From Gaiellaceae bacterium (lineage in GTDB: Bacteria > Actinomycetota > Thermoleophilia > Gaiellales > Gaiellaceae), in the NCBI GenBank assembly GCA_035535315.1, contig DATLQD010000133.1, forward strand, positions 6,272 through 70,271: a DNA stretch of 64,000 nt. Direction: 5' to 3'. The stretch's first letter is position 1, and each line of letters opens with the position of its first letter. The notes under the pieces are model-generated. The model saw nothing but the letters and a program-made list of their open reading frames with translations. It did no database searches and had not been told where the DNA came from. This document shows, in pieces, positions 9,326 to 64,000 of this stretch. The position numbers and the translations under genes are program-made.

Positions 9326-9340
9326 TCTAGCATCTGGTCC

Positions 9341-11041: not shown

Positions 11042-11050
11042 GCTCCGTTC

Positions 11051-11983: not shown

Positions 11984-12330
11984 ACCCCGAGCAGATCCGC
12001 GATTGGGGCCCGCGCCTGCTCGCGCCGCTCGCCTTCTTCGTGGCGGCAACGGTGCTCGTGCTCGTCGTCCACCGCGCTCTGAACGCGGACAGTGGCGCCA
12101 CCCCGACGCCGGCGCCCAGGGTCACCGGGCCGGGGACGAGCGCGACCCAACCGTCGACGAGCACCAAGGACGAGGCGCCGGCCAAGAAGAAGTTCTACCG
12201 TGTGCAACCCGGCGACACCCTCGATGCAATCGCGGCGCGCTTCAAGACCACGACGGACGAGCTGATCAGACTGAACCAGAGCATCGACCCGCTGTCGCTG
12301 ACCGTCGGCCAGCGAATCCGCATCCGCTAA
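11977..12330 (+). CDS. LysM domain protein with an N-terminal membrane anchor
   Basis: TM segment LLAPLAFFVAATVLVLVV, a low-complexity linker, and a C-terminal LysM (YRVQPGDTLDAIAARFKTTTDELIRLNQ...LTVGQRIRI). Confidence 0.75.
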   Translation: MVDPEQIRDWGPRLLAPLAFFVAATVLVLVVHRALNADSGATPTPAPRVTGPGTSATQPSTSTKDEAPAKKKFYRVQPGDTLDAIAARFKTTTDELIRLNQSIDPLSLTVGQRIRIR

Positions 12331-12351
12331 ATCTTCGGCGTAATCAGGTCC

Positions 12352-12708
12352 TTATGGCAGTGGTGGTTCCTCGCGCGCGGAGCGCTCGAGCTCGCGCCGT
12401 TGCCGCTCGGAACTGACCTTCTTGGCCGCGTAAACACCTGCGAGTGCGATCGTCATGAGCGGGTTCCCAAGCGTGCGGGCACGCACCACACCGACCTCGA
12501 CGCGCCGCTCCCGGCGAGAGATTCTGAGGTTGCGCGGAGGGCTGTCGAGGGGAATAACACGCTCCCGGCCCTTCCGCTCCTCGCCGGCCCAGACGAAGAA
12601 TCGGGTCGGACGCAGGTCGAAACCACCCAACGACCCGATCTGCACCTCGAGTGAGCGCTCGACCCCGCGGATGCGCGCCGGCTTCGTCTCCCGCTCCTCG
12701 GACCCCAT
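12352..12708 (-). CDS. Hypothetical protein (118 aa), family not recognised
   Basis: The only protein-like frame in the 415-nt gap between the LysM gene and dacB. Mostly G/C third positions and a TAA stop. No obvious SD. The overlapping frames are Arg/Gly/Pro junk. Confidence 0.3.
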   Translation of the reverse strand: MGSEERETKPARIRGVERSLEVQIGSLGGFDLRPTRFFVWAGEERKGRERVIPLDSPPRNLRISRRERRVEVGVVRARTLGNPLMTIALAGVYAAKKVSSERQRRELERSAREEPPLP

Positions 12709-14841: not shown

Positions 14842-14902
14842 ATCACAAGCCGCCGAGCCGTCTGGCCCGGCTGGTACGATCCTGTCACTTGAGAGGCTGT
14901 AG

Positions 14903-16486
<1,584 letters not shown>

Positions 16487-16487
16487 A

Positions 16488-16650
16488 GATGGCCGATCGC
16501 CAATTACCACACACGCGGATGGCGGCCCAGACACGGCGCCAGACCGCACCCTCGCCCTTGTCAAGGCTTCTAGCCTTGCCTGCGGACGACGGCGCACCCT
16601 GGCTTGGCCTGACCCGTCCCCGCGGGCGTGCCAATTACCGATCGGCCATC
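16488..16650. repeat. 163-nt inverted-repeat-bracketed element filling the guaB-guaA spacer
   Basis: GATGGCCGATCG-CCAATTACC at 16488..16508 and CCAATTACC-GATCGGCCATC at 16631..16650. That gives 12-bp perfect terminal inverted repeats plus a 9-nt direct repeat. An internal hairpin CAAGGCT-TCT-AGCCTTG lies at 16562..16578. Confidence 0.45.
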
Positions 16651-16655
16651 GTCTG

Positions 16656-18230
16656 ATGGGGCAGGTGCTTCCGATCCCGGAGCCGCCCGTCGAGGAGCGG
16701 CCCGTGCTGGTCGTCGACATGGGCGGCCAGTATTCGCAGCTGATCGCTCGCAGGGTCCGCGAATGCCGTGTCTACTCGGAGCTCGTTCCGCACACGATGT
16801 CTGTGGACGCGATGCGCGCCCGCCGCCCCCTCGGACTGATCCTCTCCGGCGGGCCTGCCTCGGTGTACGCGGACGAGGCGCCGCAGCTCGATCCGGGAAT
16901 CTACGACCTCGGAGTGCCCATGCTTGGCATCTGCTACGGCATGCAGCTGATCGCACACCAGTTGGACGGTGAGGTCGATCACACCGACCGCGCGGAGTTC
17001 GGGCGCTCGGAGCTCAAGGCGGAAGCAGGGAGCGCTCTCTTCGAAGGGCTCCCGGCCGAGCAGGCCTGCTGGATGAGCCACCGGGACTCGGTGGTCGCGC
17101 CCCCGTCGGGCTCACGTGTCACGGCGTCCTCGCCTTCGGCTCCCATCGCGGCATTCGAGGCGCCCGACCGCGGCCTTTACGGCGTCCAGTTTCACCCCGA
17201 GGTCGTGCACACGCCCCACGGCATGGACATCCTCAAGAACTTCCTCTTCCACGTTGCAGACGCTCCGCCGGTCTGGACCCCCACGGCCGTGATCGAGGAG
17301 GAGACAGCGCGCATCCGCTCCCAGGTGGGAAGCGATCGCGTGCTCTGCGCGCTCTCCGGGGGAGTGGACTCGGCGGTGGCGGCGCTCCTCGTTCATCGCG
17401 CGGTCGGAGAGCAGTTGACCTGCGTCTTCGTCGATCACGGGCTGCTCCGAAAGGACGAGGCAATCCAGGTCGTCGAGACCTTCGAGCGCCACTTCCAGGT
17501 GCCGCTGGTGCACGTCGATGCCCGCGAGCGGTTCCTCGCCCGGCTCGAAGGCGTCACCGATCCGGAGGAGAAGCGAAAGCGGATCGGCGAGGAGTTCATC
17601 CGCGTCTTCGAGGAGGAGTCGCGCCGGCTCGGCACGATCCGCCACCTCGTCCAGGGAACGCTCTACTCCGACGTGATCGAGTCGGGCGGGTCTGGGGACG
17701 GCGTTGCCGCAACGATCAAGTCGCACCACAACGTCGGTGGGCTCCCGGAGGAGATGGATTTCGACCTCGTCGAGCCCCTGCGCATGCTCTTCAAGGACGA
17801 GGTGCGCCGGGTCGGTGAAGAGCTGGGCCTCCCCGAGGGAATGGTCTGGCGCCAACCGTTTCCCGGCCCGGGGCTCGCGATCCGAATCATCGGCGAGGTG
17901 ACGGAGGAGCGGCTCGAGCTCGTGCGGGAGGCCGACGCCGTCCTCCAGGAGGAGATCCGCCGCGCGGGGCTGTACAAGGACCTGTGGCAGAGCTTCTGCG
18001 TCCTTCCCGCCGTCCGCTCCGTGGGCGTGCAGGGCGACGGTCGCACGTACGCCTATCCGATCGTGATCCGGGCCGTCACGTCGGACGACGCTATGACCGC
18101 CGACTGGGCCAGGCTCCCGTACGACCTGCTCGAGACGATCTCGAGCCGGATCATCAACGAGATCCCCGGGATCAACCGCGTGGCGCTCGACCTGTCGTCA
18201 AAACCGCCGGCGACGATCGAGTGGGAATAG
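16656..18230 (+). CDS. guaA: GMP synthase (glutamine-hydrolysing)
   Basis: ATG 16656, then [36 protein letters not shown] (P-loop) and the C-terminal ...KPPATIEWE. The ORF-track start at 16443 adds junk. Confidence 0.95.
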
Positions 18231-18243
18231 CCCGCTTCTTCGA

Positions 18244-18567
18244 CTAGTCGACGGCGGTTTCAGCCTCTTCGGCATCCTCGCCGTGCTCGACGATGTCTCC
18301 GGGTTTGAAAAGGACCTTCTCAAGGGCGACGTGCCACTTCTCCTTGCGGCGGATGAGGAACTCCAGATCCATCGCGAAGTGCTTGAACTCCTCCTGTTGC
18401 GCGTTCTCCATGATCGCGCGCGCCTCGGCGTCCTGCTCGAGTGCGAGGCGCTGCTCGTACCAGCCGATTGCCTCCGCCTCCTCGATGAGCGAGGTGCACA
18501 TGCGCGCAAACGTCCTGGTCTCATCCGGCAGCTCGGCCGCCGGTTCGTGGTACTGCTCGAATCCCAC
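18244..18567 (-). CDS. Encapsulated-ferritin (EncFtn)-like mini-ferritin
   Basis: HEPAAELPDETRTFARMCTSLIEEAEAIGWYEQRL....ENAQQEEFKHFAMDLEFLIRRKEKW parallels the EncFtn pattern I recall (HEP..L.EET....EE.EA..WY.QR.....EE.(K/E)H.AM.LEWL.R...KW). ExxH and EE ligand positions are present. Confidence 0.7.
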   Translation of the reverse strand: MGFEQYHEPAAELPDETRTFARMCTSLIEEAEAIGWYEQRLALEQDAEARAIMENAQQEEFKHFAMDLEFLIRRKEKWHVALEKVLFKPGDIVEHGEDAEEAETAVD

Positions 18568-18579
18568 CTGATCCTCCTT

Positions 18580-18846
18580 CTAGTCGGCGTGAAACCCGCG
18601 GAGCCCCTCGGGCTCCTCCTCGACGGTATCGACCCGGTCGACGCGGGCGCCCGGCGGCCCCTCGCCCGCGACGGCGAGGAGCCGGTCGACGGCGTCCGGC
18701 TCTCCCTCGAAGACGGCCTCCACCGTTCCATCGGGCTTGTTCTCGGCCCACCCGGCGACGCCCTCCTGCTCGGCGTGGTGGGCGAGCGTCGAGCGGAAGA
18801 AGACTCCCTGGACGCGCCCGTGGATGACGAGTCGGCGGCGGATCAC
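18580..18846 (-). CDS. acyP: Acylphosphatase
   Basis: VIHGRVQGVFFRS...GWAENKPDGTVE.VFEG is the acylphosphatase signature. GTG 18846..18844; the rest of ORF 18580..19515 is junk. GTGA overlap with the MFS gene. Confidence 0.85.
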   Translation of the reverse strand: MIRRRLVIHGRVQGVFFRSTLAHHAEQEGVAGWAENKPDGTVEAVFEGEPDAVDRLLAVAGEGPPGARVDRVDTVEEEPEGLRGFHAD

Positions 18847-19973
18847 GCCTTGCGCTCCGCGTACCGTGGGAACCAGGGCAGGAGGAGCACGGCGACCAGG
18901 AGCGAGAAGCCCGCGGCGAGGTAGAACGGCGCGCGGGTGTCGAGGTCGAAGAGCGGGACGTAGATGAGCGGTGCGATCGCGACCCCGGCGAACTTGAAAG
19001 CGCTGTAGACGGAGGTCGCCCCGGCCCGGTTGTCGGGGAACGACTCGACCGTGATCGTGTTCAGTCCGGCCCATGTGAACGCCGAGGCACATCCGACGGC
19101 GAGGTAGACGAGGGCGAGACTCCACGCCGTAGGAGCGAAGGCCATCCCGAGGACTCCGGCGGCGCAGGCGAGCGCTCCCGCGAGAGCTGTTCGGGGCCGC
19201 CCGAGCCGGTCGACTGCGGATCCTGCGTACCGGCCCAGGGCGATCGCCCCGACGCCGTACCCCGCGACAACGAGGCCCCGTGTTCCCGAGCCGAGCCCGA
19301 ACTCCCGATCGGCGACGAGGACGACCACGAACCCAATCGCTGTGAACCCGAGGTAGCCGAGCATCGCTTTGGCTCCGAGGAGCGCGATCCAGCGGTTTGC
19401 GAGGGAACGGAAGCCGCCCTCGCCGCGGGCGTTTTCCTCGATCGCCCCGAGGGACCGCCGCGGGAGCGCCAGCACGGTCGAGACGACCGCGACGAGGACG
19501 AAGGCGAGCCGCCACGACACCTCGCCCAGGGCGCCGCCGATCGCGGGAGCGAACGTCATTCCTGCAGCCTGCCAGGCGGCGAACGTTCCGACGCTTCGCC
19601 CGAGCACTTCGGGCGCCACGACCTCCGAGAGTGCCGCCAGAAGAATGGGGGAGAGGAACGCGTTGGCCGCTCCCATGAGGGCACGGCCTGCGAGGAAGAC
19701 CCAGATCGACGGGGAGAACGCGCAGACAAGGGCCGCGCCGCCGTAGACGAGGTAGCCCGCCCGCACGATCCGTCGCGGCCCCAGCCGGCTCGCGAGCGTC
19801 CCCGACACGAGCTGAAGGGCGGCGAACGGCACCATGTAGGCGGTGATCCCGCCGGCGACGAGTGCGAGCGACGTGTCCAGGCCCTCGGCCACGTTCGGGA
19901 TCAACGCGATCAGCATCGCGCCCCCGAACGGACCGAGGAAGCCGCCTGTGTAGAGGGGGAAGGTCAGTCGCAC
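18843..19973 (-). CDS. MFS transporter
   Basis: About 12 hydrophobic segments and an MFS loop 2-3 motif (SGTLASRLGPRR). Confidence 0.8.
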   Translation of the reverse strand: MRLTFPLYTGGFLGPFGGAMLIALIPNVAEGLDTSLALVAGGITAYMVPFAALQLVSGTLASRLGPRRIVRAGYLVYGGAALVCAFSPSIWVFLAGRALMGAANAFLSPILLAALSEVVAPEVLGRSVGTFAAWQAAGMTFAPAIGGALGEVSWRLAFVLVAVVSTVLALPRRSLGAIEENARGEGGFRSLANRWIALLGAKAMLGYLGFTAIGFVVVLVADREFGLGSGTRGLVVAGYGVGAIALGRYAGSAVDRLGRPRTALAGALACAAGVLGMAFAPTAWSLALVYLAVGCASAFTWAGLNTITVESFPDNRAGATSVYSAFKFAGVAIAPLIYVPLFDLDTRAPFYLAAGFSLLVAVLLLPWFPRYAERKA

Positions 19974-19994
19974 GCGCCTAGGCTACGCAGGGCT

Positions 19995-20531
19995 GTGGTG
20001 GATGCCCTCGCACAGGCGCACATCGGCGAGACGTTCAACTTCTACCGTCGCGGTCGCGGGGCGGGCCTTCGCCGGGCGCGGCTCGCGGCCTATCTCGAGC
20101 TCCATGCCGACGCACCTCTTCTCCTGGTCGCCGAGGCGCCGGGCTTTCGCGGTACCCGAATCAGCGGCGTCCCGCTCACCTCGGAGCGCCAGCTCTCCGG
20201 GTCGGGTCCCTCCGAGGCGACCGCGACGATCGTCCACCGCGTCCTCGCAGAGCTCGGGCTCGGGCAGCTCGTCCTCCTGTGGAACGCCGTACCCACGCAC
20301 CCACACCTGCCCGGGAACCCGGCCTCGAACCGCCGCCCGACGCAGACGGAGGTCGAGGCCTCCCGCCCCTTCCTCGACGCACTGGCACGTGGTCGCAGCG
20401 TTATCGCGGTCGGGAGGGTCGCCGAGTCAGCCCTCGGCATACCCGGCATCAGGCACCCCTCGCACGGTGGCGCGATCGCCTTCCGTGCGGGGCTGATGGA
20501 ATACGCCTGTGAGCTCGGTCTCGGCCGGTAG
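19995..20531 (+). CDS. Uracil-DNA glycosylase superfamily protein (family 4-like)
   Basis: LLLVAEAPGFRG (GE-x-PG-type motif A) and a C-terminal HPSHGG (motif B). Confidence 0.65.
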   Translation: MVDALAQAHIGETFNFYRRGRGAGLRRARLAAYLELHADAPLLLVAEAPGFRGTRISGVPLTSERQLSGSGPSEATATIVHRVLAELGLGQLVLLWNAVPTHPHLPGNPASNRRPTQTEVEASRPFLDALARGRSVIAVGRVAESALGIPGIRHPSHGGAIAFRAGLMEYACELGLGR

Positions 20532-21765
20532 CCCGGCCCCTCCCGTTACCAGGAACACGATCCTCCTCGCCGCGTCGCTCGCGACCGTCTCGGCGATGCT
20601 CCAGCTGGGGGCGGCAATCGCGACGATCACCTTCGTCCTCGTCACAGGGGTCGACGCCCTGCTGGGTCTCGGTCCGGCGATCCTCCTGTCCAGCGGGGCG
20701 CTCGCAGCTCTCTTCGCCGGGCGGGCCATGGACAGGCTCGGCCGGATCCCGGTGCTTGCGGCGGGCTACGTCGCAGGGATGGCCGGCTCCGGCCTGATCG
20801 CCCTCGCCGCACACGCGGAGTCGTCGTTCGCGCTGATTCCCGGCCTGGCTCTGGTCGGAGCGTTCGCCGGGGTCGCGAACCTGACGCGCACCGCGGCCGG
20901 AGACATGTATCCGCCGGAGCGCCGCGCGCGCGGAATCTCGTTCGTCCTCTTCGGCTCGGTGTTCGGAGCGATCCTCGGGCCGGCGGTGTTCGCACCGCTC
21001 TTCGCGGGTCGTGACCTCGAGGCGGAGTCCCTCGTCGTGCCCTGGCTCGCGGGCGGCGGCTTCCTGATTGTCGGGCTCGCGCTCGTCCTCGCCGTCCGCC
21101 CGGATCCAAAGCGGATCGCCGAGCTGCTGGGGACGTCGCGCGGTGCCCCGGCCCCCGCCGCTGCCGCGCCGCTCTCCGAGATCCTCCGGCGCCCGGGCGC
21201 GATTCCCGCCCTTCTGGCCGCACTCGCGAGCTTCGGCGTCATGGTCAGCGTCATGAACCTGACCGGCTACGTCGTCGTGACCGAGCACGGGCACCAGCAG
21301 AACGACGTCTTCCCGATCATCGGCGCGCACGTGCTCGGGATGTACGCGCTCGTCCTCTTCGTGGGGCCGGTGATCGACCGGATCGGCCGCACCCAGGCGC
21401 TCGTGGGTGGGCTCGCGATCATGGCCCTTTCCTGCGTGCCGCTCGCCTGGGTGGGAAGCGTCGGCGTCACGGGTGTGCTTCTCTTCGGGCTCGGGCTTGG
21501 TTGGAACCTCTCCTTCGTGGCTGCCACAGCACAGCTCGCCGATCTCACGTCCCCCGCCGAGCGCGGGAAGCTACTGGGCTTCAGCGACCTCCTGTCCGGG
21601 ATCCTCGGTGCGTCGCTGGCCCTGCTCGGAGGCTTCGCGCTCGAGGCGGTCGGGGTCGTCGCACTCGCAGCCGGAGCGACCGCGATCGCGCTTGCTCCGG
21701 TCACGCTCATCGTGCGCCGCCGGAAGCGGCAAGACCCCGCTCTTGCTACCATCTCCGACCGCTGA
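20509..21765 (+). CDS. MFS transporter
   Basis: 12-TM-type hydrophobicity; [11 protein letters not shown] loop motif. Start uncertain because the ORF overlaps the previous gene by 23 nt. Confidence 0.8.
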
Positions 21766-35753: not shown

Positions 35754-36452
35754 ATGGGCGGACGGGACAGTCGGGCTCGCAGCTTCTCCGGTCGGCGCGA
35801 GGCCACGATCGGACTGGGCATGTACGCCATCTACCTGCTCGTACGGGCCGCGGTCGTGAACGACAGCGGCCGGGCGCAGGCCCGCCGAAACGCAGAACGG
35901 ATCGTGGCGGCCGAGCGAAGCCTTCGGATTCATGTCGAGCCAAAGCTCCAGCAGGTGCTGCTGCCGCGGACGCGCCTGATCGCAGTCCTGAACGTGACCT
36001 ATGCAGTCGCGAACGTTGGGCTCAGCGTCGGGTGGCTCGCGCGGCTCTTCTTCCGACGCCGTCCCGAGTTCCATCGCCTGCGGCGCGCGGCCGTCTTGAC
36101 GACTCTCGGTGCTCAGCCGGTCTTTCTGCTCTTCCCAACCGCCCCTCCGCGGACGCTCGACCATTTCGTCGACACGATCGCAGAGGTGAGCGGCTTCGAC
36201 CTCGACTCCGGCCTGATCGCGAAGCTCTACGACCCCATTGCCGCCATGCCATCGATCCACGTGGCTTACGCCGTGGTCACTGCGACCGGGATCGTCGAGA
36301 CGAGTCGCAGCCCTCTCGCGCGGCGCCTCGCGCCCGCCTATCCGCCGCTTGTGGCGCTCACGGTGCTCGCGACCGCGAACCACTACGTCCTGGATGCAGT
36401 TGCGGGCGCGGCGCTCGGGTTCACGGGCCTGCGGCTCGCTCGCGAGCTCTAG
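35754..36452 (+). CDS. PAP2-superfamily membrane protein (PAP2_3 / inositol-phosphorylceramide-synthase-like)
   Basis: Multi-TM, with AAMPSIHVAY and ATANHYVLDAVAGA (SxH ... HxxxD-type PAP2 motifs). Confidence 0.7.
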   Translation: MGGRDSRARSFSGRREATIGLGMYAIYLLVRAAVVNDSGRAQARRNAERIVAAERSLRIHVEPKLQQVLLPRTRLIAVLNVTYAVANVGLSVGWLARLFFRRRPEFHRLRRAAVLTTLGAQPVFLLFPTAPPRTLDHFVDTIAEVSGFDLDSGLIAKLYDPIAAMPSIHVAYAVVTATGIVETSRSPLARRLAPAYPPLVALTVLATANHYVLDAVAGAALGFTGLRLAREL

Positions 36453-37531
36453 GCGACGTTTTCGATTGCGGCCGAGTCTTCCTCCTCGAGCAGATCGAGA
36501 ACGGCCTCCTCGATCGCGCCCTGTGTCGAGGGCTCCCCGAACCGGCTCTCGTCGCCCAGGCGATCGAGGGCGCCGCCGATCGTGACCCCGTCCTCGAACC
36601 GGTCGAAAACGCGAGGGTCGATGTACGAGGCCCGGCAGACCGCGGGCGTGTTGCCGAGGTAGTGCGAGACCTCCTTGATTGCTCTCGTGACCGCGCGCTT
36701 GCGGGCCGTCGGCGTGCCGGCGGCCCGGCCGGAAACGGCGAGCCCGACGGCGGCGAGCACAGTGGCGCTCCAGGTCCGGAAGTCCTTGGCGGAGAAGTCC
36801 GCCCCCGTGACCTCCTTGATATAGGAGTTGATGTCCGCGGAGCGGACGTCGACCCAGCGGCCGTTCGGCTTGTAGGCGAGGAGCTCACGTCCGCTCCGCC
36901 TGCGCTTCAGCTCGCTGATGACTTCGCAGACGTCCGGGTCGACGAGCGACTGGACCTGCTGCTTCCCGCCTTTGGCTTCATAGTCGAATGTGATCAGCCC
37001 ACCTTCGCCGACAGTCACATGGCGCTTCTGCATCGTCGCAAGGCCGTAGGTCTGATTCTGCTCGGCGTAGTCCTCGCCGCCGATCCTGAAGAAGCCCCGA
37101 TCGAGGAGCCGGACGGCACAGGCGAGCACGCGCTCACGCGGCATCCCGCGGAGCTTGACGTGCTTCGCCGCGACTGTGCGCACGTGCGGGAGCGCCCGGG
37201 CGAATGCGAGCATCTCGTCGAACTTCTCCTGGTCTCGCCGCTGGCGCCACTTGTCGTGGTAGCGGTATTGCCTCCGGCCGGCGACGTCCGTACCGATCGC
37301 CTGGATGTGGCCGGTCGGGTAGGGACAGATCCAGACGTCAGCCCACGCGGGAGGAATCACGAGCTCGCGGATCCGCCGGAGCACCTCCGGGTCCTCGACG
37401 CGCCCGCCGAACTCGTCGAGGTACTCAAAGCCGCGGCCACGCCGGCGCCGGGTGATACCCGGGCCGGAGCAATTGGCTCGTCGCAGTCTCGACATCGGCA
37501 GCGAAATGTTCCCCGCTATCGCGTGCCTCAA
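36449..37531 (-). CDS. DNA topoisomerase IB (poxvirus-like bacterial type)
   Basis: GPGITRRRRGRGFEYLDEFG, IRELVIPPAWADVWICP, GRRQYRYHDKW, and the catalytic-Tyr context CRASYIDPRVF near the C-terminus. Start is TTG 37531 or ATG 37495. Confidence 0.85.
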   Translation of the reverse strand: MRHAIAGNISLPMSRLRRANCSGPGITRRRRGRGFEYLDEFGGRVEDPEVLRRIRELVIPPAWADVWICPYPTGHIQAIGTDVAGRRQYRYHDKWRQRRDQEKFDEMLAFARALPHVRTVAAKHVKLRGMPRERVLACAVRLLDRGFFRIGGEDYAEQNQTYGLATMQKRHVTVGEGGLITFDYEAKGGKQQVQSLVDPDVCEVISELKRRRSGRELLAYKPNGRWVDVRSADINSYIKEVTGADFSAKDFRTWSATVLAAVGLAVSGRAAGTPTARKRAVTRAIKEVSHYLGNTPAVCRASYIDPRVFDRFEDGVTIGGALDRLGDESRFGEPSTQGAIEEAVLDLLEEEDSAAIENVA

Positions 37532-37537
37532 CCCAGC

Positions 37538-46453: not shown

Positions 46454-46770
46454 GCCTCGACGAGACCTAGGTTCCGCTCGAGCATGCCCTTCGGCTGGGC
46501 GCCCACGGCCGCCGCGGCCGGCTTGCCCTCGCGGAAGAGGATGATCGTAGGAATGCTCATGACGCCGTAGCGCTGCGCGAGCGCAGGCTCCTCATCGATG
46601 TTCACCTTTGCGATCCGAAGCTCACCGGATCGCTCCTCGGCGATCTGATCCAAGACCGGAGCGACGGCATGGCACGGGCCACACCACTCCGCCCAAAAGT
46701 CCACCACGACCGCCTGCTCGCTCTCAAGCACCTCGGCTTCGAATGTCGTCTCTGTCACTTCAGTTGTCAT
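46450..46770 (-). CDS. trxA: Thioredoxin
   Basis: VVVDFWAEWCGPCHAVAP canonical WCGPC site; 106 aa. Confidence 0.95.
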   Translation of the reverse strand: MTTEVTETTFEAEVLESEQAVVVDFWAEWCGPCHAVAPVLDQIAEERSGELRIAKVNIDEEPALAQRYGVMSIPTIILFREGKPAAAAVGAQPKGMLERNLGLVEA

Positions 46771-46925
46771 TGTTCTCCTTCTGGATTTGGGGCCGGCCGC
46801 GAGCCACCCTCCGGCTTCAGCCTATTTTCGTGTTGCGCACCGATGCCGCACAATTGTGTCTAAAGCGTTAAACGACGAGACGGATCGGGAAAATCCCGCG
46901 CCGGACCGGCAACTAGACTGGCCTC

Positions 46926-56660: not shown

Positions 56661-56734
56661 CGGGACGTGGCGCAGCCTGGTAGCGCACCTGCTTTGGGAG
56701 CAGGGGGTCGCGAGTTCAAATCTCGCCGTCCCGA
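56661..56734 (+). tRNA. tRNA-Pro (anticodon UGG)
   Basis: Hand-folded cloverleaf: acceptor CGGGACG/CGTCCCG, D-stem GCGC/GCGC, anticodon stem CCTGC/GCAGG with loop TTTGGGA, 5-nt variable loop, T-arm GCGAG-TTCAAAT-CTCGC, discriminator A. CCA is not encoded. Confidence 0.9.
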
Positions 56735-57132: not shown

Positions 57133-57296
57133 GGGCCGATCGTAGCCCTGTGCGGGGCATGCTGCTGTGGAATCTCGTGGAGAGAAGCTGGAAAGCCGCG
57201 GCGGCGAGCAGGGCGCGACTTCTACTTCACCCTGGAAGGGATTTACGGCTTTTGGGCTGCCGTCTGCTACCACAGGTGACCAGGGGCGAAGGGCAA

Positions 57297-57384
57297 CTGC
57301 GACTTGGGAGCAGGGGTCGCGGGTTCAAATCTCTCGCCGTCCCGATCGCAGGAGGGGCCTGGAAGCGGGGCCTTTCCCGTCGTA
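57297..57384 (+). pseudogene. Degenerate duplicate of the 3' half of tRNA-Pro plus its downstream hairpin (att-like scar / tRNA pseudogene)
   Basis: CTGCGACTTGGGAGCAGGGGTCGCGGGTTCAAATCTCTCGCCGTCCCGA...GGCCTGGAAGCGGGGCCTTTCCCGTCGT aligns by hand with 56689..56772 (CTGCTTTGGGAGCAGGGGGTCGCGAGTTCAAATCTCGCCGTCCCGA...GGCCCTGGAAGCAGGGCCTTTTCGTTCGT), with a few substitutions and indels. No matching 5' acceptor or D-arm, and the T-stem is disrupted. Confidence 0.65.
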
Positions 57385-57501
57385 GCGGAAGCGGCGGGGA
57401 CCTCAACACCTTCTTCGGTGTCGACGGTAGGCTGTCGCGTCGGTCGCGCGCCGGCACGACATGCACGAGAAGCGGGCTCGCCGGCAAGTAGTCTCTCGCG
57501 G

Positions 57502-58260
57502 GTGAACGAGCCCTGTGCCGACGTCGTCGAGGAGGGCCGGCGGCTCATAACCCTCGCCGAGCAGGAGAACCTGCCGCTTCGCCTCCTGGGGGGTGTGGCC
57601 ATCAGGCTCCGCAGCCCCGGGACGGGCCACCCGGCGTTCGAGCGCACGTACGCGGATCTCGACTTCGCAGCCGCCAAGGGCTCGTCCGCGAGAACCGCGT
57701 CCTTCTTCGAGTCAGCCGGCTACGTCCCGCATGTCGCCTTCAACGCTCTGCAGGGAAGCGAGCGCCTGCTCTTCTTCGACGACGCCAACAGGCGGCAGGT
57801 GGACGTGTTCGTGGGTGCGTTTTCCATGTCGCACAAGATCCCGCTTGCGGAGCGCCTCGAGCTCGAGCCGGTGTCGGTCCCGCTCGCCGAGCTTCTCCTG
57901 ACGAAGCTCCAAATCGCCGAGCTGAACGAGAAGGACGTGCGAGACGCGCTGGCGCTTCTCTACGAGCACCCGGTCGGAGAGGAGGACGGCGACACCGTCA
58001 ACGCCGCCCGAGTCGCCGTGCTCTGCGCCGCGGACTGGGGACTCTGGCGCACTATCACCGGGAATCTCGAGGCAACGCTCGCCCGTCTGGACGACTATGC
58101 CCTTTCGGCGGACGAGAAGCGCACCGTCGCGGCGCGGGCGCAGGCGCTTCTCGACCGCATCGAGGCCGAGCCGAAGTCTCGCGCCTGGCGCCTTCGCGCC
58201 CGCATCGGAGAGCGAAAGCGGTGGTACGAGCTACCGGAAGAGGTTGCCGGAGGCCCCTAG
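57502..58260 (+). CDS. Hypothetical protein (252 aa), possibly nucleotidyltransferase-fold
   Basis: GTG 57502; the ORF-track start at 57304 would run through the tRNA pseudogene. Protein-like sequence (..LRLLGGVAIRL...YADLDFAA...RQVDVFVG..). Family not recognised with confidence. Confidence 0.5.
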   Translation: MNEPCADVVEEGRRLITLAEQENLPLRLLGGVAIRLRSPGTGHPAFERTYADLDFAAAKGSSARTASFFESAGYVPHVAFNALQGSERLLFFDDANRRQVDVFVGAFSMSHKIPLAERLELEPVSVPLAELLLTKLQIAELNEKDVRDALALLYEHPVGEEDGDTVNAARVAVLCAADWGLWRTITGNLEATLARLDDYALSADEKRTVAARAQALLDRIEAEPKSRAWRLRARIGERKRWYELPEEVAGGP

Positions 58261-58275
58261 AACCTTGAAGGAGTG

Positions 58276-58319
58276 TTGCAAGCGCGGCTACGTCGTTGCA
58301 ATACTTGCGTCGGTGCAAT
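58276..58319 (+). promoter_or_regulatory. Repeated (G)TTGCAA / GTGCAAT palindromic hexamers upstream of, and at the start of, the IclR gene (candidate operator)
   Basis: TTGCAA at 58276..58281 and 58296..58301 (20-bp spacing), a TTGC half-site at 58304, and GTGCAAT at 58313..58319. Confidence 0.35.
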
Positions 58320-58990
58320 CCGCAGACAAGGCACTCGCGATCCTCGCCGCCTTCACCGAGGCTCGACCGGAACTCGGTGCAACCGAGCTTGCCGGGGAGC
58401 TCGGGATGCACAAGAGCACCGTCTCGCGGCTTCTTGCAACGCTCGAAAAACGAGGTCTCGTGCGCCGAGCCGGCGACCGCTTCCTTCCGGGACCGGAGCT
58501 GGCTCGGCTCGGCTCGCTCGCCGCGCGCGGCCTCGCACTCCTCCCAACGGCCCGTGATCCGCTCGCGCGCCTTGCGGACGAGACCGGCGAGACCGTGAAC
58601 CTCGCGATCCGGGAGGGCGATCGCGTTTTGAACGTGTACCAGGTCGAGACCTCCCACTTCGTCGGAGTGAAGAACTGGACCGGCCGCACGACGCCGCTCG
58701 ACACGACCGCGAACGGCAAGGTTCTGCTCGCCTTCGGTGACGGCGGCGCCTCCGCGGAGCTCGAACGCATTCGTGGGTGCGGATATGCGACGGCCGTTGA
58801 GGAACTCGAGCCGGGCCTGAACTCAGCGGCAGCGCCGGTCTTCGATTGCACGGGCGCTTGCGTGGCCGCAGTCTCGGTTGCAGGGCCCTCCTATCGCGTC
58901 ACCGAAGGGCGGCTCGCAGATCTCGGCCTTGCGTGCGCCGCGGCCGGAAACGAGATATCTGCCGGCCTCGGACACCGGAAAGCTGCCTGA
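58313..58990 (+). CDS. IclR-family transcriptional regulator
   Basis: SADKALAILAAFTEARPELGATELAGELGMHKSTVSRLLATLEKRGLV (wHTH) plus an IclR effector domain. Start is GTG 58313 or TTG 58265; the ORF-track start at 58097 is junk. Confidence 0.85.
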   Translation: MQSADKALAILAAFTEARPELGATELAGELGMHKSTVSRLLATLEKRGLVRRAGDRFLPGPELARLGSLAARGLALLPTARDPLARLADETGETVNLAIREGDRVLNVYQVETSHFVGVKNWTGRTTPLDTTANGKVLLAFGDGGASAELERIRGCGYATAVEELEPGLNSAAAPVFDCTGACVAAVSVAGPSYRVTEGRLADLGLACAAAGNEISAGLGHRKAA

Positions 58991-60204
58991 TGGCCTGGGA
59001 GGTGCGCACGTTCGCTCCTGACGTGCTTGCGCCCGACGTGGGGCGCATCGAAGACCTGACGCGCGCCGAGCCCGCTCTCGCTGGCGTCGACGTCGCGGTC
59101 GTCGAGCCCGGGGAGCCGGTGCGGGTCACGCACGTCCTCGATGCGGTCGAGCCACGAATCCGCTCCGACGGTCGAATGGCATTTCCAAGCGAGGAGCGAG
59201 CGGGCGAGGGCGTAACGAATCGGATCAGCGACGTCGTCGTACTCTCCTGCCTCGATTTTCCCGGCGAGGAGCGTCCGCTGCACGAACAGGAGTCGATCGT
59301 CGACCTCTCGGGCCCGGCCGCCGACCTGACGCCTTTCGGCTCGATGCGAAACGTCGTCCTGACGTTCCGCCCCGGCGAGGGTGCGGGACACCAGGCCATC
59401 GACAGCGCAGTCCGGCGCGTGACACTCCGCGTGGCCGAGATCCTGGCCGAGCCGACCCTAAGCGCCGAACCGGTGCACACGCACACGTTCGCGCTCGGGC
59501 CGGCCGACGATGCGCTTCCGGCCGTCGCGGCACTCATACAGCTCTCCGACCTTGGCCAGCTTTACCAGCTCTACCTCTATGGAACCCCGGTTGGCGAGAG
59601 CGGCCTGCCCAAGCTCGTCGATCCAGCGGAGGTAATGGACGGAGCTGTCACTGCAGGGGAGTATCACTGGGCGGCAATGCGGAATCCGACGCTCTTCTTC
59701 CAGCTCAACTCGCTGGTACGAACCCTCTATCGCGAGCATGGCAAGCGCCTGCGCTTCGCGGGCGTCGTTCTCATGCGGGGGTACGAGCAGTCGGCGGACG
59801 ACAAGCAGCGCGCTGCCGATGCGGCCGCGCGAGTCGCGGTCGGGCTCGGCGTTGACGGAGTGGTGATCACGACTGACGCCGGCGGGAACAGTCACACCGA
59901 CACGATGCTCACCTGCAGAGCCTGCGAGAACGCTGGCGTGAAGACAGCGGTGATCGTCTGCGAAGAGACCGATCTGGACGCGACTGAGCCGATCCTGACC
60001 GACTGGGTCTCCGAGGCCGACTGCATCGTCTCGACCGGGAACGTCGAGCAGTTCGCACCGGCCTGGAAGCCAGAGCGCGTGCTGGGCGGCGATCACTTTC
60101 TCGACGGCACGCCGGCCGCCGAGGCGGGCCCGATCCCGGTCCGCAACTATCTGGGCGCAGCCAACCAGATGGGCCAGCTCGACCTCGGAGCGACGTCATG
60201 GTGA
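58990..60204 (+). CDS. Glycine/sarcosine/betaine reductase component B, alpha/beta-proprotein family (GrdE/GrdG/GrdI-like), lacking the central Cys
   Basis: ATG 58990 (TGATG junction with iclR). 404 aa with the family blocks as I recall them (..DPAEVMDGAV..., YREHGKRLRFAGVV, GVDGVVITTDAGGNSHTD, C.NAGVKTV.., N.LGAANQMG). No Cys between residues 88 and 308. Confidence 0.75.
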   Translation: MAWEVRTFAPDVLAPDVGRIEDLTRAEPALAGVDVAVVEPGEPVRVTHVLDAVEPRIRSDGRMAFPSEERAGEGVTNRISDVVVLSCLDFPGEERPLHEQESIVDLSGPAADLTPFGSMRNVVLTFRPGEGAGHQAIDSAVRRVTLRVAEILAEPTLSAEPVHTHTFALGPADDALPAVAALIQLSDLGQLYQLYLYGTPVGESGLPKLVDPAEVMDGAVTAGEYHWAAMRNPTLFFQLNSLVRTLYREHGKRLRFAGVVLMRGYEQSADDKQRAADAAARVAVGLGVDGVVITTDAGGNSHTDTMLTCRACENAGVKTAVIVCEETDLDATEPILTDWVSEADCIVSTGNVEQFAPAWKPERVLGGDHFLDGTPAAEAGPIPVRNYLGAANQMGQLDLGATSW

Positions 60205-61475
60205 GGGCCGTCCACTACCTGAATCAGTTCTTCGCGGGGCTCGGCGGCGAGGAGGCGGCGGGTACCGAGCCGACTCGTATCGACGGCCCGGTCGGCCCGG
60301 GCAAGGGACTTGCCGCTGCCCTCGAGGGAATCGAGATCGTCGCGACCATCGCCTGCGGCGACGATTACTTCAGCGAGCACGAGGAAGCTGCGCTCGGGCG
60401 ACTCTTCGAACTGATCGAGCGCGACCAGCCCGACCTGCTGGTCGCCGGCCCGGCGTTCGGGTCCGGGCGCTACGGCTACGCCTGCGCTCGTGTCGCGGCC
60501 GAGGCGAGCAAACGTGGGATTCCCGGGCTTGCGGCGATGCACGAAGAGAACCCAGGTGTTGCAGCAGCAGCGGGCAAGGTGCTGATCGTCCCAACGGCAG
60601 TGAATGTGGCCGGCATGCGTGACGCGCTGCCGCGGCTTGCGTCTCTCGCTAGCGCACTTGTGAGTGGCCGTGAGCTGGGTCCGCCGGAGGAAGAGGGGTA
60701 TCTCCCGCGTGGACTGCGGCGGAACAGACACCACGGAGCGACGGGAGCCGAGCGGGCTGTGGATCTCCTCCTTGCGAAGCTCGCCGGCGAGAAGCGCTCC
60801 GAGGTCGGAGGGTCGTTCGACCGGGTCGAGCCTCCGGCGCGCGTGGAAGATCTCTCGCACGCCCTCATCGCGCTCGTGACCGAAGCTGGGTGCGTTCCGC
60901 AGGGAAATCCCGATCGGCTGCCGAGTGTGCGCGCCCAGGCATGGCTTCGATATTCCCTCGCGGGCGAGAAGCGGCTCGATGCTGGTGACTACGAAAGCGT
61001 GCACGGCGGCTTCGATGTCTCCCGAGCGAACGAGGATCCGAACCGGCTCGTTCCGCTGGACACCGTGAGCGGCCTGATCGATGAAGGCCGGATCGGCCGC
61101 CTGCACGAGTTCTTCTATACGACAACCGGGAACGGCACGCCTGTTGCAACCTCGACCGAGTTCGGCCGCGAGATCGCGGGAGAGCTGCGGGATGCCGGCG
61201 TCGAAGCCGTTCTCCTCTCGGGAACTTGAGGGACGGGGACGCGCTGCGGGGCAGTGCTCGCGAAGGAGATCGAGCGGGAAGGGATACCGACGGTGTTCGT
61301 GACCTCCCTGCCGACGATCTCGACCATGATCGGCGTCAACCGAACGCTTCGCGGCCCGGCGATCACGCATCCCTTCGGTCTCGACGAGGAGGAGCGTCGC
61401 CAGATCGTCGAGCGGGCACTCGAGATGCTCGAGACAGACGTCGAGCCGACGACCGTCTGGGAGGTGGCTTCTTGA
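60198..61475 (+). CDS. grdB: Glycine/sarcosine/betaine reductase selenoprotein B family (GrdB/GrdF/GrdH-like), TGA = Sec at codon 344
   Basis: ORFs 60198..61229 and 61254..61475 are one frame, interrupted only by TGA 61227..61229. MVRAVHYLNQFFAGLGGEE..., AGPAFGSGRYGYAC, PEEEGYLPRGLR, VTEAGCVPQGNPDR, FYTTTGNGT, ..VLLSGT-U-GTGTRCGAVLAKEIEREGIP closely follows my recollection of clostridial GrdB. The symbol denotes the family; substrate type is unresolved. Confidence 0.85.
61241..61257 (+). promoter_or_regulatory. Candidate SECIS hairpin 12 nt downstream of the grdB-like UGA
   Basis: GCGCUGC-GGG-GCAGUGC: 7 bp including one G-U pair, with a G-rich apical loop. Hand-folded only. Confidence 0.35.
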
Positions 61476-61626
61476 CGACCATGGGGCTGAATTGCGTTGT
61501 TCTTGACGCGCGTGTATCTCGGGTCCCGACCCGCCCCCCTGCTCACGCGCGAGCGTACCGCTCGAAAACGCTCGAGTGGGACGCTGAATGTGCCACTGGC
61601 GTTACGAAAGTGGAGCTGCGGATCAC

Positions 61627-62958
61627 GTGAGCGGGGCCGCAATTCACGGGTGCTCGCTCGTGCTTGCGCACGCGCCCGACCTCGTGCAGCACGGGTCGAA
61701 GCCGGCGCGCGAGATCGCGGCGACGCGGGACGGCCTGCTGGACCGAATCAGCGGCGCCCTCCGCACATACGACGACGCCCTCGCCTACGCGCCCAACCAG
61801 GCCTTCGTCGGAAACCTCCGCCCCGAGGAGCTCTGGGACGTGGAGCGGCCTCGCTGGCGCCACCCGGTGAGGTCGAGCCGGGAAGGTCCATACGGCGTGA
61901 TCGTCGACGAGGATGAGCTCTACCGCCGCATGGCCGAAGCGGACGCGTTCCAGCTCTTTCGTCTGAACGGCGAGGAGGCGGGAGACGGCGCCCTGCCGCT
62001 CGCCTTGCGCGGCCGGCTCGCCGGTTCGATGCTTCGCGCCCACGAGCTCGACGAGAGTCTCTCGGCCAGCGTGCTCCTCGAGAATCTCGCCTGCAAGACG
62101 ACCGGGGCTCTCGCCCTTGAGCACCTCCTGCGCCAGATCGACTTCCCTGCCGGAGAGGTCGACTATGCGCTCGGCTGCGGTGAGGAGGCCGTCGGCGATC
62201 GCTATCAGCGGGGCGGCGGAAACCTCGGGAAGGCGATCGCGGAGCAGGCCGGATGCTCAAATGCGTCTGGCGCAGACGTCAAGGCGTTCTGCGCCGGGCC
62301 GGTCCATGCAATCGTGGTTGCCGCAGCTCTCGTCGCGGCGGGAGTCTTCAGCCACGTCGCGGTGGTGGCAGGCGGATCGCTGGCGAAGCTGGGGATGAAG
62401 TTCTCGGGCGCGTTGAAGAACGACGTCCCGGTTCTCGAGGACGTTCTAGCGGGACTCGCAATCCTGGTCGGGCCGCCGGGAGGCGGCGCGCCCGTCGTTC
62501 GACTCGACGCCGTCGGCCGCCACAGGATCGGCTCCGGCTCGGCTCAGCAAGCCGTCCTCGAGGATCTCGTCGTCGAGCCACTGAGTCGGCTCGGCCGCGG
62601 CATTCTCGATGTCGACCGCTACGCAACTGAGCTCCACGACCCGGAGATCACGGAGCCGGCCGGGGCTGGGAACGTCCCGAACCGGAACTACAAGCTGATC
62701 GGAGCGCTCGCGGTCAAACGCGGGGAGCTTCCGCGGGACGAGCTCGAGAGCTTCGAGCGCACACGCGGGCTGCCCGGATACTCTCCGACGCAGGGGCACG
62801 TCGCCTCAGCTGTCCCGTACCTCCCGCACGCGCTCACGGCGCTGCGAGCGGGTGACATCGGCTCTGCGATGCTGGTCGCGAAGGGCTCGCTGTTCCTCGG
62901 CCGCATGACCGGGCTGGCTGACGGGATGTCAATTCTGCTCGAACCCGGAAAGGAGTGA
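61627..62958 (+). CDS. grdC: Glycine reductase complex component C, beta subunit-like (GrdC), short form (443 aa)
   Basis: LVLAHAPDLVQHGS, YAPNQAFVGNLRPEEL, LLENLACKTTGALAL, YQRGGGNLGKAIAEQAGCSNASGADVKAFCAGPVHAIVVAAALVAAGVF..VVAGGSLAKLGMK, PAGAGNVPNRNYKLIGALAVKRGE, PTQGHVASAVPY, KGSLFLGRMT match GrdC as I remember it. GTG 61627 (GGAG 12 nt upstream) is preferred over ATG 61588. Confidence 0.8.
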   Translation: MSGAAIHGCSLVLAHAPDLVQHGSKPAREIAATRDGLLDRISGALRTYDDALAYAPNQAFVGNLRPEELWDVERPRWRHPVRSSREGPYGVIVDEDELYRRMAEADAFQLFRLNGEEAGDGALPLALRGRLAGSMLRAHELDESLSASVLLENLACKTTGALALEHLLRQIDFPAGEVDYALGCGEEAVGDRYQRGGGNLGKAIAEQAGCSNASGADVKAFCAGPVHAIVVAAALVAAGVFSHVAVVAGGSLAKLGMKFSGALKNDVPVLEDVLAGLAILVGPPGGGAPVVRLDAVGRHRIGSGSAQQAVLEDLVVEPLSRLGRGILDVDRYATELHDPEITEPAGAGNVPNRNYKLIGALAVKRGELPRDELESFERTRGLPGYSPTQGHVASAVPYLPHALTALRAGDIGSAMLVAKGSLFLGRMTGLADGMSILLEPGKE

Positions 62959-62961
62959 CAG

Positions 62962-63288
62962 ATGGTCGAAGCAACCCCGGAAACATTCAAGGAACTGACG
63001 CGCGAGGGAAGCGTCCTCGTTGACTTCTGGGGGCCGCGTTGCCAGCCGTGCCTGCAGATGATGCCGACCGTGGAGAAGCTCGAGGAGGACTCGGCCGGCG
63101 CCGTCAAGGTTGTGAAGGTGAACGCGAGCGAGAATCGAGATGTGTGTCGCGAGCTCCGCGTCTTCGGTCTGCCCACGTATCTTCTTCTCCGCGACGGCGA
63201 GGAGCTCGAGCGCCTGTCGGGCGAGGTGTCAAAGGAAGACATCGAGAAGGCATTTGCGACGCTTGGAAACGGAGGTGAGGCAGCATGA
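62962..63288 (+). CDS. Thioredoxin-family protein with an atypical CQPC active site (Grd-associated)
   Basis: [18 protein letters not shown] instead of WCGPC; 108 aa. GGAAAGGAG SD. ATGA overlap with grdA. Confidence 0.85.
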
Positions 63289-63749
63289 AGCTCGAGGGAA
63301 AGAAGGTGATCGCGCTGGGCGAGCGGGATGGTGTCCCGGGCCCAGCCATCGCCGACGCAGTCAGGTCGGCGGGCGCGGAGGTTGTCTTCGTCGAGACGGA
63401 GTGCTTCGTCTGAACGGCGGCAGGCGCCATGGACCCCGAGAACCAGGACCGCATCAAGAGCCTGGTCGACGAGCACGGGGCCGACGACCTGGTGGTGGTG
63501 CTCGGAGCCGCTGACCTCGAGTCCCTCGAAGTCACGGCCGAGACGGTCACCGTCGGGGACCCGGCCTACGTGGGTCCGCTGGCAGGAGTTCAGTTGGGAC
63601 TCCCCGTTGTTCACATCCTCGAAGAGGACATCAAGGAGCAGGTTGACCCTCAGGTCTACGAGGATCAGGTAGGGCTGCTCGAGATGACGCTCGACATCGA
63701 GCAGGTGCGAGTGGCCGTGAAGGGCTTCCCGGGCCGGGACCGGACTTGA
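63285..63749 (+). CDS. grdA: Glycine/sarcosine/betaine reductase complex selenoprotein A, TGA = Sec at codon 43
   Basis: Frame from ATG 63285: [42 protein letters not shown]-[TGA 63411..63413][34 protein letters not shown]...[23 protein letters not shown]. This is the hallmark GrdA sequence with the CxxU motif. The ORF track shows only the part after the TGA (63429..63749). Confidence 0.9.
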
Positions 63750-63764
63750 CCGAGCCTGAGGCGT

Positions 63765-64000
63765 TCAGCCGCGCTCCTCTTCCGCCAGGAACCGAAGCAC
63801 GTACACCGCGAAGATCCCGAAGAAGACGATCGCCTCGCTCCCGGCCATGATCACCCCCGCGATCTGCTGGTCGGTGAGCGGGTCGAGCCCCCAAAGGCGC
63901 GGAGCCGACTCGTAGAACCCGTAGATCGCGCTGGGAAGCAGCGCCAGCAGCAACCCGACCGGACTGTTCAGTAGAAACGCAGCGAAAAGATATGCAGCTT
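63765..64000 (-). CDS. Cytochrome c oxidase assembly factor CtaG-like membrane protein (C-terminal part; 5' end outside the window)
   Basis: The frame is open to the window edge: ..AAYLFAAFLLNSPVGLLLALLPSAIYGFYESAPRLWGLDPLTDQQIAGVIMAGSEAIVFFGIFAVYVLRFL. The DQQ.AG.IM block resembles the caa3-type CtaG family (recollection). Confidence 0.5.
   Translation of the reverse strand, partial: AAYLFAAFLLNSPVGLLLALLPSAIYGFYESAPRLWGLDPLTDQQIAGVIMAGSEAIVFFGIFAVYVLRFLAEEERG

Follow-up and report, generated by a model that had tools for sequence, protein, structure and literature searches.

A Two-Selenoprotein Reductase Operon of the Glycine/Betaine-Reductase Type, with neither a Pyruvoyl Precursor nor GrdD in Its Transcription Unit, in Soil Actinomycetota

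What is an operon of the glycine/betaine-reductase type doing in a soil actinobacterium? Grd-type reductases are the textbook Stickland enzymes of strict anaerobes, and all characterized versions that we know of use GrdD to make acetyl phosphate. Soil Thermoleophilia (Gaiellales and their relatives) are among the commonest soil Actinomycetota and are generally regarded as aerobes. The operon in question lies at positions 58265–63749 (+) of a 64,000-nucleotide stretch (hereafter, the window) of the Gaiellaceae bacterium contig DATLQD010000133.1 (assembly GCA_035535315.1, contig positions 6,272 to 70,271). By open reading frame (ORF) listing and translation, it consists of six same-strand, tightly coupled genes, namely iclR, a GrdE-family gene, a GrdB-family gene, and the genes for GrdC, a thioredoxin (Trx) and GrdA. 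An earlier inspection of the letters alone (the sequence-only reading) had called the operon atypical and had placed it in a high-GC lineage outside the classical Firmicutes context. The latter point stands, the host being an aerobe-type member of the Gaiellaceae with a caa3-oxidase assembly gene adjacent to the operon. The former holds with respect to the Firmicute paradigm but not within the actinobacterial clade described below, where this form is standard; lack of the cleavage Cys is, moreover, common among the nearest, uncharacterized PF09338 clusters. The operon departs from the characterized glycine, sarcosine, betaine and fluoroacetate reductases in four linked ways: it has no pyruvoyl precursor, its motif at the selenocysteine (Sec) is UxxGxxC, its GrdC is short, and the transcription unit includes neither GrdD nor TrxB. 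We lean towards the view that it encodes a functional five-gene, thioredoxin-dependent reductase of the glycine/sarcosine/betaine-reductase type, with two selenoproteins, belonging to a clade of soil Actinomycetota.

A scan for related loci, with one genome per GTDB species, yielded 80 loci from Gaiellaceae, Gaiellales, other Thermoleophilia, an Acidimicrobiales metagenome-assembled genome (MAG), other Actinomycetota, one member of the Spirochaetaceae and one of the Chloroflexi. All five reductase genes were present in 69 of them, and in 68 the order was alpha-B-C-Trx-A (alpha and B being the GrdE-family and GrdB-family subunits of protein B); alpha identity to the window ranged from 92% to 40%, and the remaining 11 loci were mostly truncated. 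The module of alpha, B[Sec], short C, Trx and A[Sec] is the standard form in a large, uncharacterized clade of soil actinobacteria. The exact alpha protein of the window occurred on 23 soil-metagenome contigs that we examined (28 collection blocks in the index), and its NCBI entries are Gaiellaceae MAGs. An exhaustive alpha search among representatives of 50%-identity clusters returned 714 clusters at E ≤ 0.001, the nearest full-length outgroups being 37–45% identical; the names of the sister alpha clusters were generic metagenome labels only. A literature search on Gaiellales or Thermoleophilia together with glycine reductase or selenoproteins gave nothing relevant, and we found no paper describing this module.

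Two of the genes need UGA to be read as Sec, as the sequence-only reading had proposed. In the B selenoprotein gene (GrdB/F/H family; 60198..61475, +; 425 aa), the in-frame TGA is at 61227–61229, in the context LLSGT-U-GTGTRCG; in the GrdA gene (63285..63749, +; 154 aa), it is at 63411–63413, in the context ECFV-U-TAAGAMD. The GrdA product passed the equivalog NF040748 (218 bits, cut-off 130) and has the CxxU redox site. The TGA and its surroundings, GT-U-GT(G)(T)RC, were found in all the 74 related loci in which the Sec region of B was recovered, with Ser replacing Gly at U+3 in one (L044) and Thr at U+4 in another (L031). Similarly, all GrdA genes recovered (68 related loci, 73 sequences scanned) had the TGA within CFV-U-TA[AS]GAMD. 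Neither protein ever carried Cys in place of Sec.

The ratio of nonsynonymous to synonymous substitution rates (dN/dS), calculated against relatives about 91% identical, was 0.06–0.10 for all six genes (0.065–0.087 for iclR). Past the TGA it was 0–0.13 in B and 0.07–0.20 in GrdA, whereas the spacer between B and GrdC, read in frame, gave a dN/dS-like ratio of 0.4–1.1. Furthermore, a selenocysteine insertion sequence (SECIS) hairpin is found in the B gene at 61241..61257 (+), 14 nt after the UGA, with a 6-bp stem (61241–46 with 61252–57) and a CGGGG loop. The stem was paired in 70 of 70 distinct sequences. Two of its base pairs vary in a compensatory way (G-C/A-U/U-A and C-G/U-A), and another alternates between G-U and G-C; the loop was CGGGG or CGGGU. 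When the partner strand was slid along, pairing fell from 96% to 24–63%. An equivalent hairpin is present in Firmicute grdB and grdH. The NCBI annotation of another Gaiellaceae MAG (GCA_036279015.1) likewise runs across the TGAs, giving complete products for B (423 aa) and A (154 aa). A remote member of the clade from an Actinomycetota MAG (L089) has genes for tRNA-Sec (6390–6486), a SelB homologue (17901–18977) and a SelD homologue (19699–20691) within 10 kb of the module. The latter two are 37% and 39% identical, respectively, to the E. coli proteins, so that in this case the Sec machinery is linked to its main client. To judge from these patterns, the genes are intact and under selection and their TGAs are very probably decoded as Sec.

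Further comparisons relied on two reference loci, retrieved from PLSDB with GrdC as the tblastn query: the glycine reductase cluster of Acetoanaerobium noterae (L010; trxB-trx-grdE-grdA-grdB-grdC-grdD) and a cluster annotated as betaine-type on plasmid pCR1A of Enterococcus gilvus (L011; trxB-trx-grdA-grdC-grdD-alpha(GrdI)-grdH-BCCT). The reference motifs are YAESGMGCTGP for GrdD and CEPC for Trx.

The alpha subunit (GrdE/GrdG/GrdI family, non-pyruvoyl form; 58990..60204, +; 404 aa; PF09338, 259 bits) has Cys only at residues 87, 309, 312, 324 and 345, which bears out the earlier remark that none lies between residues 88 and 308. The stretch that had been suggested to correspond to the GrdE cleavage region, DGAVTAGEYHW, begins at residue 217, and alignment to the A. 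noterae GrdE (DGAILSGN/CVSAC, the slash standing between the Asn and the Cys) indeed sets Glu-Tyr (about residues 224–225) against the Asn-Cys pair. Thus the window reads AGEYHWAA where the canonical protein reads SGN/CVSAC, and since the Asn-Cys is missing, this subunit cannot make a Cys-derived pyruvoyl group. The GrdI of Enterococcus gilvus also has no cleavage Cys at this position (SGSFMPCS). Two processing cysteines, together with a UxxCxxC motif in the selenoprotein subunit, are regarded as canonical, and both GrdI and FarE go without processing (PMC10838667, PMC13188914). By analogy with the betaine-type enzymes, the alpha subunit of the window would remain unprocessed. In some relatives, a Cys occurs three residues before the cleavage position (TCGEYHW); we considered it as a processing site and dismissed it, as it is not conserved and is Ala in the window.

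Among NCBIfam families, alpha matched only four, and always below the cut-offs in the cases of GrdG (176 bits, cut-off 780), the fluoroacetate reductase subunit FarE (76.7 bits, cut-off 675) and the D-proline reductase subunit PrdA (25 bits, cut-off 700). In a neighbor-joining (NJ) tree, which held no FarE reference, the Gaiellaceae alphas formed a long branch of their own, whose sister group consisted of metagenomic clusters with an 'AY-DYAG'-type cleavage position; both were far from the GrdE/GrdI clade, where GrdI grouped with GrdE. The cleavage Cys was present in just six of the approximately 120 nearest full-length representatives (37–45% identical or less), all six from the GrdE clade, implying that non-pyruvoyl forms are common, though uncharacterized.

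The B subunit (PF07355, 398 bits) passed the subfamily model TIGR01918 (422 bits, cut-off 65) but scored below the equivalog cut-offs for GrdB (TIGR01917; 387.8 bits, cut-off 602.2), GrdF (422 bits, cut-off 800) and GrdH (357 bits, cut-off 775), as well as for PrdB (78 bits, cut-off 300). Hence, the scores, and for alpha the tree as well, put the protein B subunits outside the ordinary glycine-reductase clades, and to judge by the NCBIfam cut-offs the operon lies outside every named subfamily (glycine, sarcosine, betaine and fluoroacetate). The Sec motif of B is U-GTG-TRC, compared with ST-U-GTCTRCG in canonical GrdB and GrdH: Cys at U+3 is replaced by Gly and the second Cys is kept, so the middle Cys of UxxCxxC is missing, as the sequence-only reading had suspected. 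Sequence searches of the PDB gave no match for either alpha or B.

GrdC (protein C beta subunit; 61627..62958, +) starts at a GTG that gene callers also picked on identical metagenome contigs. It passed the equivalog NF040746 (551 bits, cut-off 450), and yet it is 443 aa long, about 70 aa shorter than the canonical references (511–514 aa), in agreement with the length of roughly 510 aa given for GrdC in the sequence-only reading. Alignment showed that all the GrdD-less actinobacterial GrdCs compared lack an approximately 36-aa insert in the N-terminal half and an approximately 35-aa C-terminal tail. Conversely, both segments were present in ten out of ten GrdD-adjacent GrdCs (eight from metagenome contigs plus those of the two reference loci), a set that includes contigs of 68–71% GC and a natural GrdC-GrdD fusion. 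The fusion, on the 71% GC contig Ga0209467_1001289 (L109, ~6760–9400), appears as an 877-aa ORF in which the GrdC tail serves as linker. A rearranged module in the Spirochaetaceae MAG CP070696.1 (L085, 10001–16700) has the order alpha, B, Trx, C, A, with a gap of 2 kb between B and Trx; the GrdC has kept the insert and misses the tail, its Trx motif is CARC, and no GrdD is within reach.

Searches for the partner protein were negative throughout the clade. Using two GrdDs and TrxB as tblastn queries, we found neither in the window, in the 6 kb beyond it, or in the 80 related loci with 10 kb on each side, the 69 complete modules included; for GrdD there was no match even at E < 1. The sequence-only reading had reported no grdD or trxB in reach, and this now extends to the relatives. 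In metagenomes, we looked for the invariant GrdD motif YAExGMGCTGP, back-translated for high GC; the motif had been checked on 120 GrdDs and had to be matched exactly. The scan gave 40 hits, at 43–71% GC, none of which was in a Gaiellales-type context. GrdC was adjacent to these hits wherever the flank was long enough, and the full-length ones aligned over 488–510 residues, i.e., they were of the long form. In every canonical locus examined, D directly followed C. A GrdD search of a set of 5.8 billion proteins was uninformative for Actinomycetota, because the best 120 matches were relatives 64–99% identical to the query and the few with names were from Firmicutes. Acetate kinase matched nothing in any locus, which carries no information, as canonical clusters have no acetate kinase either.

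The short GrdC is therefore a trait of the clade that covaries with the absence of GrdD, and from this covariation the modules are taken to work without GrdD, a conclusion that we regard as fairly likely. Protein C is non-canonical in both respects noted earlier, being short in GrdC and having no GrdD partner in reach. To our knowledge, the role of GrdC has never been clarified biochemically. Its conserved Cys (in FCAGP) falls, in an alignment with beta-ketoacyl-ACP synthase III (KAS III; 1mzj), on the AACAGF motif, whose Cys is the active-site nucleophile of that enzyme. KAS III was the only, weak, match of GrdC in a PDB search. By virtue of this correspondence, GrdC could plausibly carry an acetyl thioester itself.

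The thioredoxin gene (62962..63288, +; PF00085) encodes the motif CQPC, as had been read in the translation. In Gaiellaceae-type modules, a CQPC thioredoxin always stands between C and A; in remoter modules the motif is CVPC, CGPC, CAPC or CARC. A second, free-standing thioredoxin gene (46486–46800, −; PF00085, 103 bits) lies about 16 kb upstream and presumably is the housekeeping one.

When set beside betaine reductase (GrdH/GrdI, e.g., of Eubacterium acidaminophilum), the operon shares two selenoproteins, an alpha subunit that has no Cys for pyruvoyl formation, a non-CGPC thioredoxin of its own, the inclusion of GrdA and GrdC in the cluster, and, in one relative (L017), a connection to a choline-to-betaine pathway. 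It differs in the Sec motif of B, in the separate clade of its alpha, in the shorter GrdC, in the lack of GrdD, TrxB and a BCCT transporter in the window and annotated flanks, and in the aerobe-type soil actinobacterium that hosts it. With the glycine reductases of Acetoanaerobium (Clostridium) sticklandii and A. noterae it has in common all the protein families except GrdD, a GrdA about 60% identical with the same CFVUTAAGAMD site, and the same grdB SECIS hairpin. However, without the Asn-Cys autoprocessing site a pyruvoyl group cannot form, nor can a Schiff base with glycine, and the order alpha-B-C-Trx-A is not that of the A. noterae cluster.

The enzyme most likely needs no pyruvoyl group and probably needs no GrdD, and IclR is the probable regulator of the operon. 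The presence of GrdA and GrdC within the module points to a substrate of the form X-CH2-COO−, and the impossibility of a pyruvoyl group to one that does not require a Schiff base. In the mechanism that we propose, the alpha/B pair would bind X-CH2-COO− directly, the selenol of B would displace X, and the carboxymethyl group would be handed to the selenol of GrdA. The CQPC thioredoxin would supply two electrons and be re-reduced by an unlinked, housekeeping TrxB. Finally, the short GrdC would take up the acetyl unit on its KAS-III-type Cys and release it with no GrdD subunit, a protein presumed absent from the whole genome; the product would be acetyl-CoA or acetate, and not the acetyl phosphate that GrdD makes.

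As to the identity of X, the genes that flank the module in the subclade of the window give no clue (IclR, CtaG, EamA, an APC-family permease in nine loci and a 659-aa GMC oxidoreductase in 13). In contrast, an iclR-led module with an alpha 71% identical to that of the window (L017) is followed on the same strand by betA-aldh-choV-choW (14652–20822). A BetA choline dehydrogenase comes directly after grdA (TIGR01810, 808 bits, cut-off 732), then an aldehyde dehydrogenase, a ProV/ChoV-type ATPase (TIGR01186, 337 bits, cut-off 327) and a ChoW-type permease, duplicated or fused (TIGR03416, 376 bits, cut-off 363). By these family matches, the genes would make up a choline-to-betaine route, which makes glycine betaine (X = trimethylamine) the best single guess, albeit a tentative one. 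The broader proposition, that soil Thermoleophilia run a GrdD-independent selenoenzyme cleaving glycine betaine or related X-CH2-COO− compounds, with the KAS-III-like GrdC alone releasing acetyl-CoA or acetate, is in our estimate doubtful. Two other candidates for betaine evidence were discarded: a neighbour cluster labelled ProV-ABC in 29 loci turned out to be a mix of ProV-, PotA- and ABC-2-type ATPases, and the 659-aa GMC oxidoreductase bears a faint similarity to BetA (45–52 bits) and was not counted. This oxidoreductase (L008, L009, L019 and others; ~15300–17280, −) has an N-terminal extension of about 130 aa, is convergent to the module, and in 13 loci adjoins a Tag-type glycosylase and CtaG.

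Several considerations weigh against the mechanism and the substrate just outlined. Work on Eubacterium acidaminophilum attributed to Kohlstock et al. (2001) reportedly placed the acetyl thioester on Cys359 of GrdD and found GrdC alone to be inactive with acetyl phosphate; a GrdC-only protein C would thus be without precedent, and we know of no biochemical example of a GrdD-less one. An unlinked or divergent GrdD may be encoded elsewhere in the genome, beyond the window and the 10-kb flanks scanned. For grdA, no covariation-supported SECIS element emerged, single-sequence folds being no better than shuffles and a systematic search yielding no covarying helix. Concerning betaine, the betA-choVW set was found in just one of the 80 loci, and the window contains no betaine, choline or trimethylamine genes. 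The label 'betaine-type', which the sequence-only reading had offered as one option, is apt by analogy (no pyruvoyl group) and by the single context of L017, but not by homology: alpha shares 30.5% identity with the Enterococcus gilvus GrdI, from which it stands apart in the tree, and B scores higher on the GrdF and GrdB models than on GrdH. Lastly, the remote modules (L064–L091, 40–47% alpha identity) are flanked by PotABCD-like transporters, class-III aminotransferases, CrtI-like FAD (flavin adenine dinucleotide) oxidoreductases, NHL-repeat and SDR proteins and GntR regulators. Those subclades probably act on other compounds, with hints of a polyamine- or aminophosphonate-like substrate, and in view of such differing neighbours a single substrate for the whole clade cannot be assumed.

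Other explanations of the operon deserve to be weighed. It could be a mechanistically canonical Grd system whose GrdD and TrxB are encoded elsewhere, yielding acetyl phosphate and serving to make ATP by substrate-level phosphorylation whenever the soil turns anoxic. Such an arrangement would accord with a GrdC that passes its equivalog cut-off and with the modularity of the system, seen in satellite alpha-B pairs; our scans covered the window and the locus flanks, leaving the rest of the genome for GrdD. Firmicutes offer a parallel, several of their protein B pairs being served by a single A/C/D set, and TrxB, a universal housekeeping gene, need not be linked. We nonetheless find this explanation rather improbable, given that C and A are linked, and D never is, in the 69 complete modules and 11 further loci, while D adjoins C in the canonical loci. 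In addition, the two segments missing from the short GrdC are precisely those that every D-partnered GrdC compared possesses, and the high-GC GrdD motifs never occurred in a Gaiellales-type context, being accompanied instead by long-form GrdC where the flank allowed. A distinct idea is that the substrate is a non-amine alpha-substituted acetate, such as a haloacetate, as for the fluoroacetate reductase FarBE of Synergistota (Cloacibacillus porcorum), whose FarE is GrdE-like without the processing cysteines and whose FarB is a GrdB-like selenoprotein with a degenerate CxxC (PMC10838667). FarE was indeed among the four families matched by alpha, and the first Cys of the CxxC motif of B is lost in the window. 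The second Cys is kept, though, the FarE score is far below its cut-off, and the tree held no FarE reference for alpha to group with. Far operons comprise an antiporter and a radical-SAM gene and depend on separate GrdA, GrdC and GrdD of the host, whereas the operon of the window includes A, C and Trx, and neither a FarA-type antiporter nor a radical-SAM gene of the FarC type turned up around the module or in the annotated neighbourhoods of its relatives. We deem a haloacetate-type reductase unlikely.

An ordinary glycine or sarcosine reductase, divergent merely by phylogenetic distance, is less plausible still. The best NCBIfam scores of B and alpha are with the sarcosine models GrdF and GrdG, and B is 47–49% identical to glycine-type GrdBs in metagenome contigs, but those scores are far under the cut-offs (422 vs 800 and 176 vs 780), and the Asn-Cys for the pyruvoyl group, which binds primary or secondary amines, is absent from the window alpha and from all the clade members aligned; this makes the explanation very unlikely. 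One might also suppose that the TGAs are genuine stops and the genes decaying remnants, seeing that no selA, selB, selC or selD was found in the window and that automatic gene callers split both selenoprotein genes at the TGA. The strong purifying selection past both TGAs, the retention of TGA and flanking motifs in every B and A gene recovered (about 70 genomes), the covariation of the grdB hairpin and the Sec genes next to the module in L089 all speak to the contrary, and a pseudogene reading is effectively excluded.

These data indicate that a compact version of the Grd system, with no GrdD, no pyruvoyl cofactor and a changed Sec motif, is the usual form across a large clade of uncultured soil Actinomycetota. 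If the modules do work without GrdD, the last mechanistic step would have two solutions and protein C would come in two mechanistic types; the role of GrdC could then be put to a direct test. Should betaine prove to be the substrate, soils would harbour an unrecognized selenium-dependent route from choline or betaine to trimethylamine, and a sink for osmolytes. There is also a consequence for annotation, since gene callers split both selenoproteins at the TGA, and the generic NCBI name of alpha, 'glycine/sarcosine/betaine reductase component B subunit', hides a distinct subfamily.

Some loci appear as satellites of the system. Two of them (L061 and L083; alpha-B at 10001–12500) each consist of an alpha-B[Sec] pair whose 10-kb surroundings contain neither GrdC nor Trx nor GrdA, and the MAG MFD09212.bin.2.71 contains both a full module (L016) and one of these pairs (L061, 49% alpha identity). 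Such pairs imply that the system is modular, as in Firmicutes, which suggests that several substrate specificities share one A/C set.

The layout of the operon is as the sequence-only reading had described it, including coordinates and junctions. The iclR gene (PF09339 and PF01614) spans 58265 (TTG)..58990 (+), giving 241 aa in the version of the gene callers, as opposed to an earlier choice of a GTG start at 58313; an IclR homologue was directly upstream in 32 of the 80 related loci. The stop of iclR overlaps the alpha start (TGATG, within CTGATGG), alpha and B overlap by 7 nt (ATGGTGA), the GrdC stop and the Trx start are 3 nt apart (TGA-CAG-ATG), and Trx and GrdA share an ATGA. The operon ends at grdA, and the following convergent gene (63765..64000, −) belongs to Caa3_CtaG (PF09678), runs off the window, and was found on the same contig in metagenomes; it lies outside the reductase system. 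CtaG was the downstream neighbour in 38 related loci.

The spacer between B and GrdC (61476..61626, +) measures 151 nt, 1 nt more than first stated. It is well conserved among members with 80–92% alpha identity (e.g., TTCTTGACGCGCGTGTATCTCGGGTCCCGACCC…) and absent or very short in many others, so it is not conserved family-wide. From the B stop to the N-terminal H[AVT]PD[LM]V motif of GrdC, the distance varied between 35 and 358 nt among relatives, the lower value being virtually spacer-free. The spacer did not fold better than shuffles, and an Rfam search of the window gave a tRNA as its single match and nothing in the spacer. A promoter and terminator scan of 57200–64000 found none.

Elsewhere, the window carries ordinary chromosomal genes (guaB, guaA, glmS, glmM, alr, ileS, ispH and so on). 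Just upstream of iclR, at 57502–58260 (+), is a gene for a 252-aa protein, a homologue of which gave a weak match to the nucleotidyltransferase family PF14907; 13 of the related loci have a homologue ahead of the module. About 1.5 kb upstream of the operon is a tRNA-Pro(UGG) gene (56661–56734, +), and ARAGORN found 34 tRNA-Pro and 46 tRNA-Gly genes across the related loci, meaning that the module sits in a conserved, tRNA-flanked neighbourhood. Finally, the window contains a bacterial type IB DNA topoisomerase gene (36452–37537, −; PF01028 and PF21338), which is patchily distributed and unrelated to the operon.

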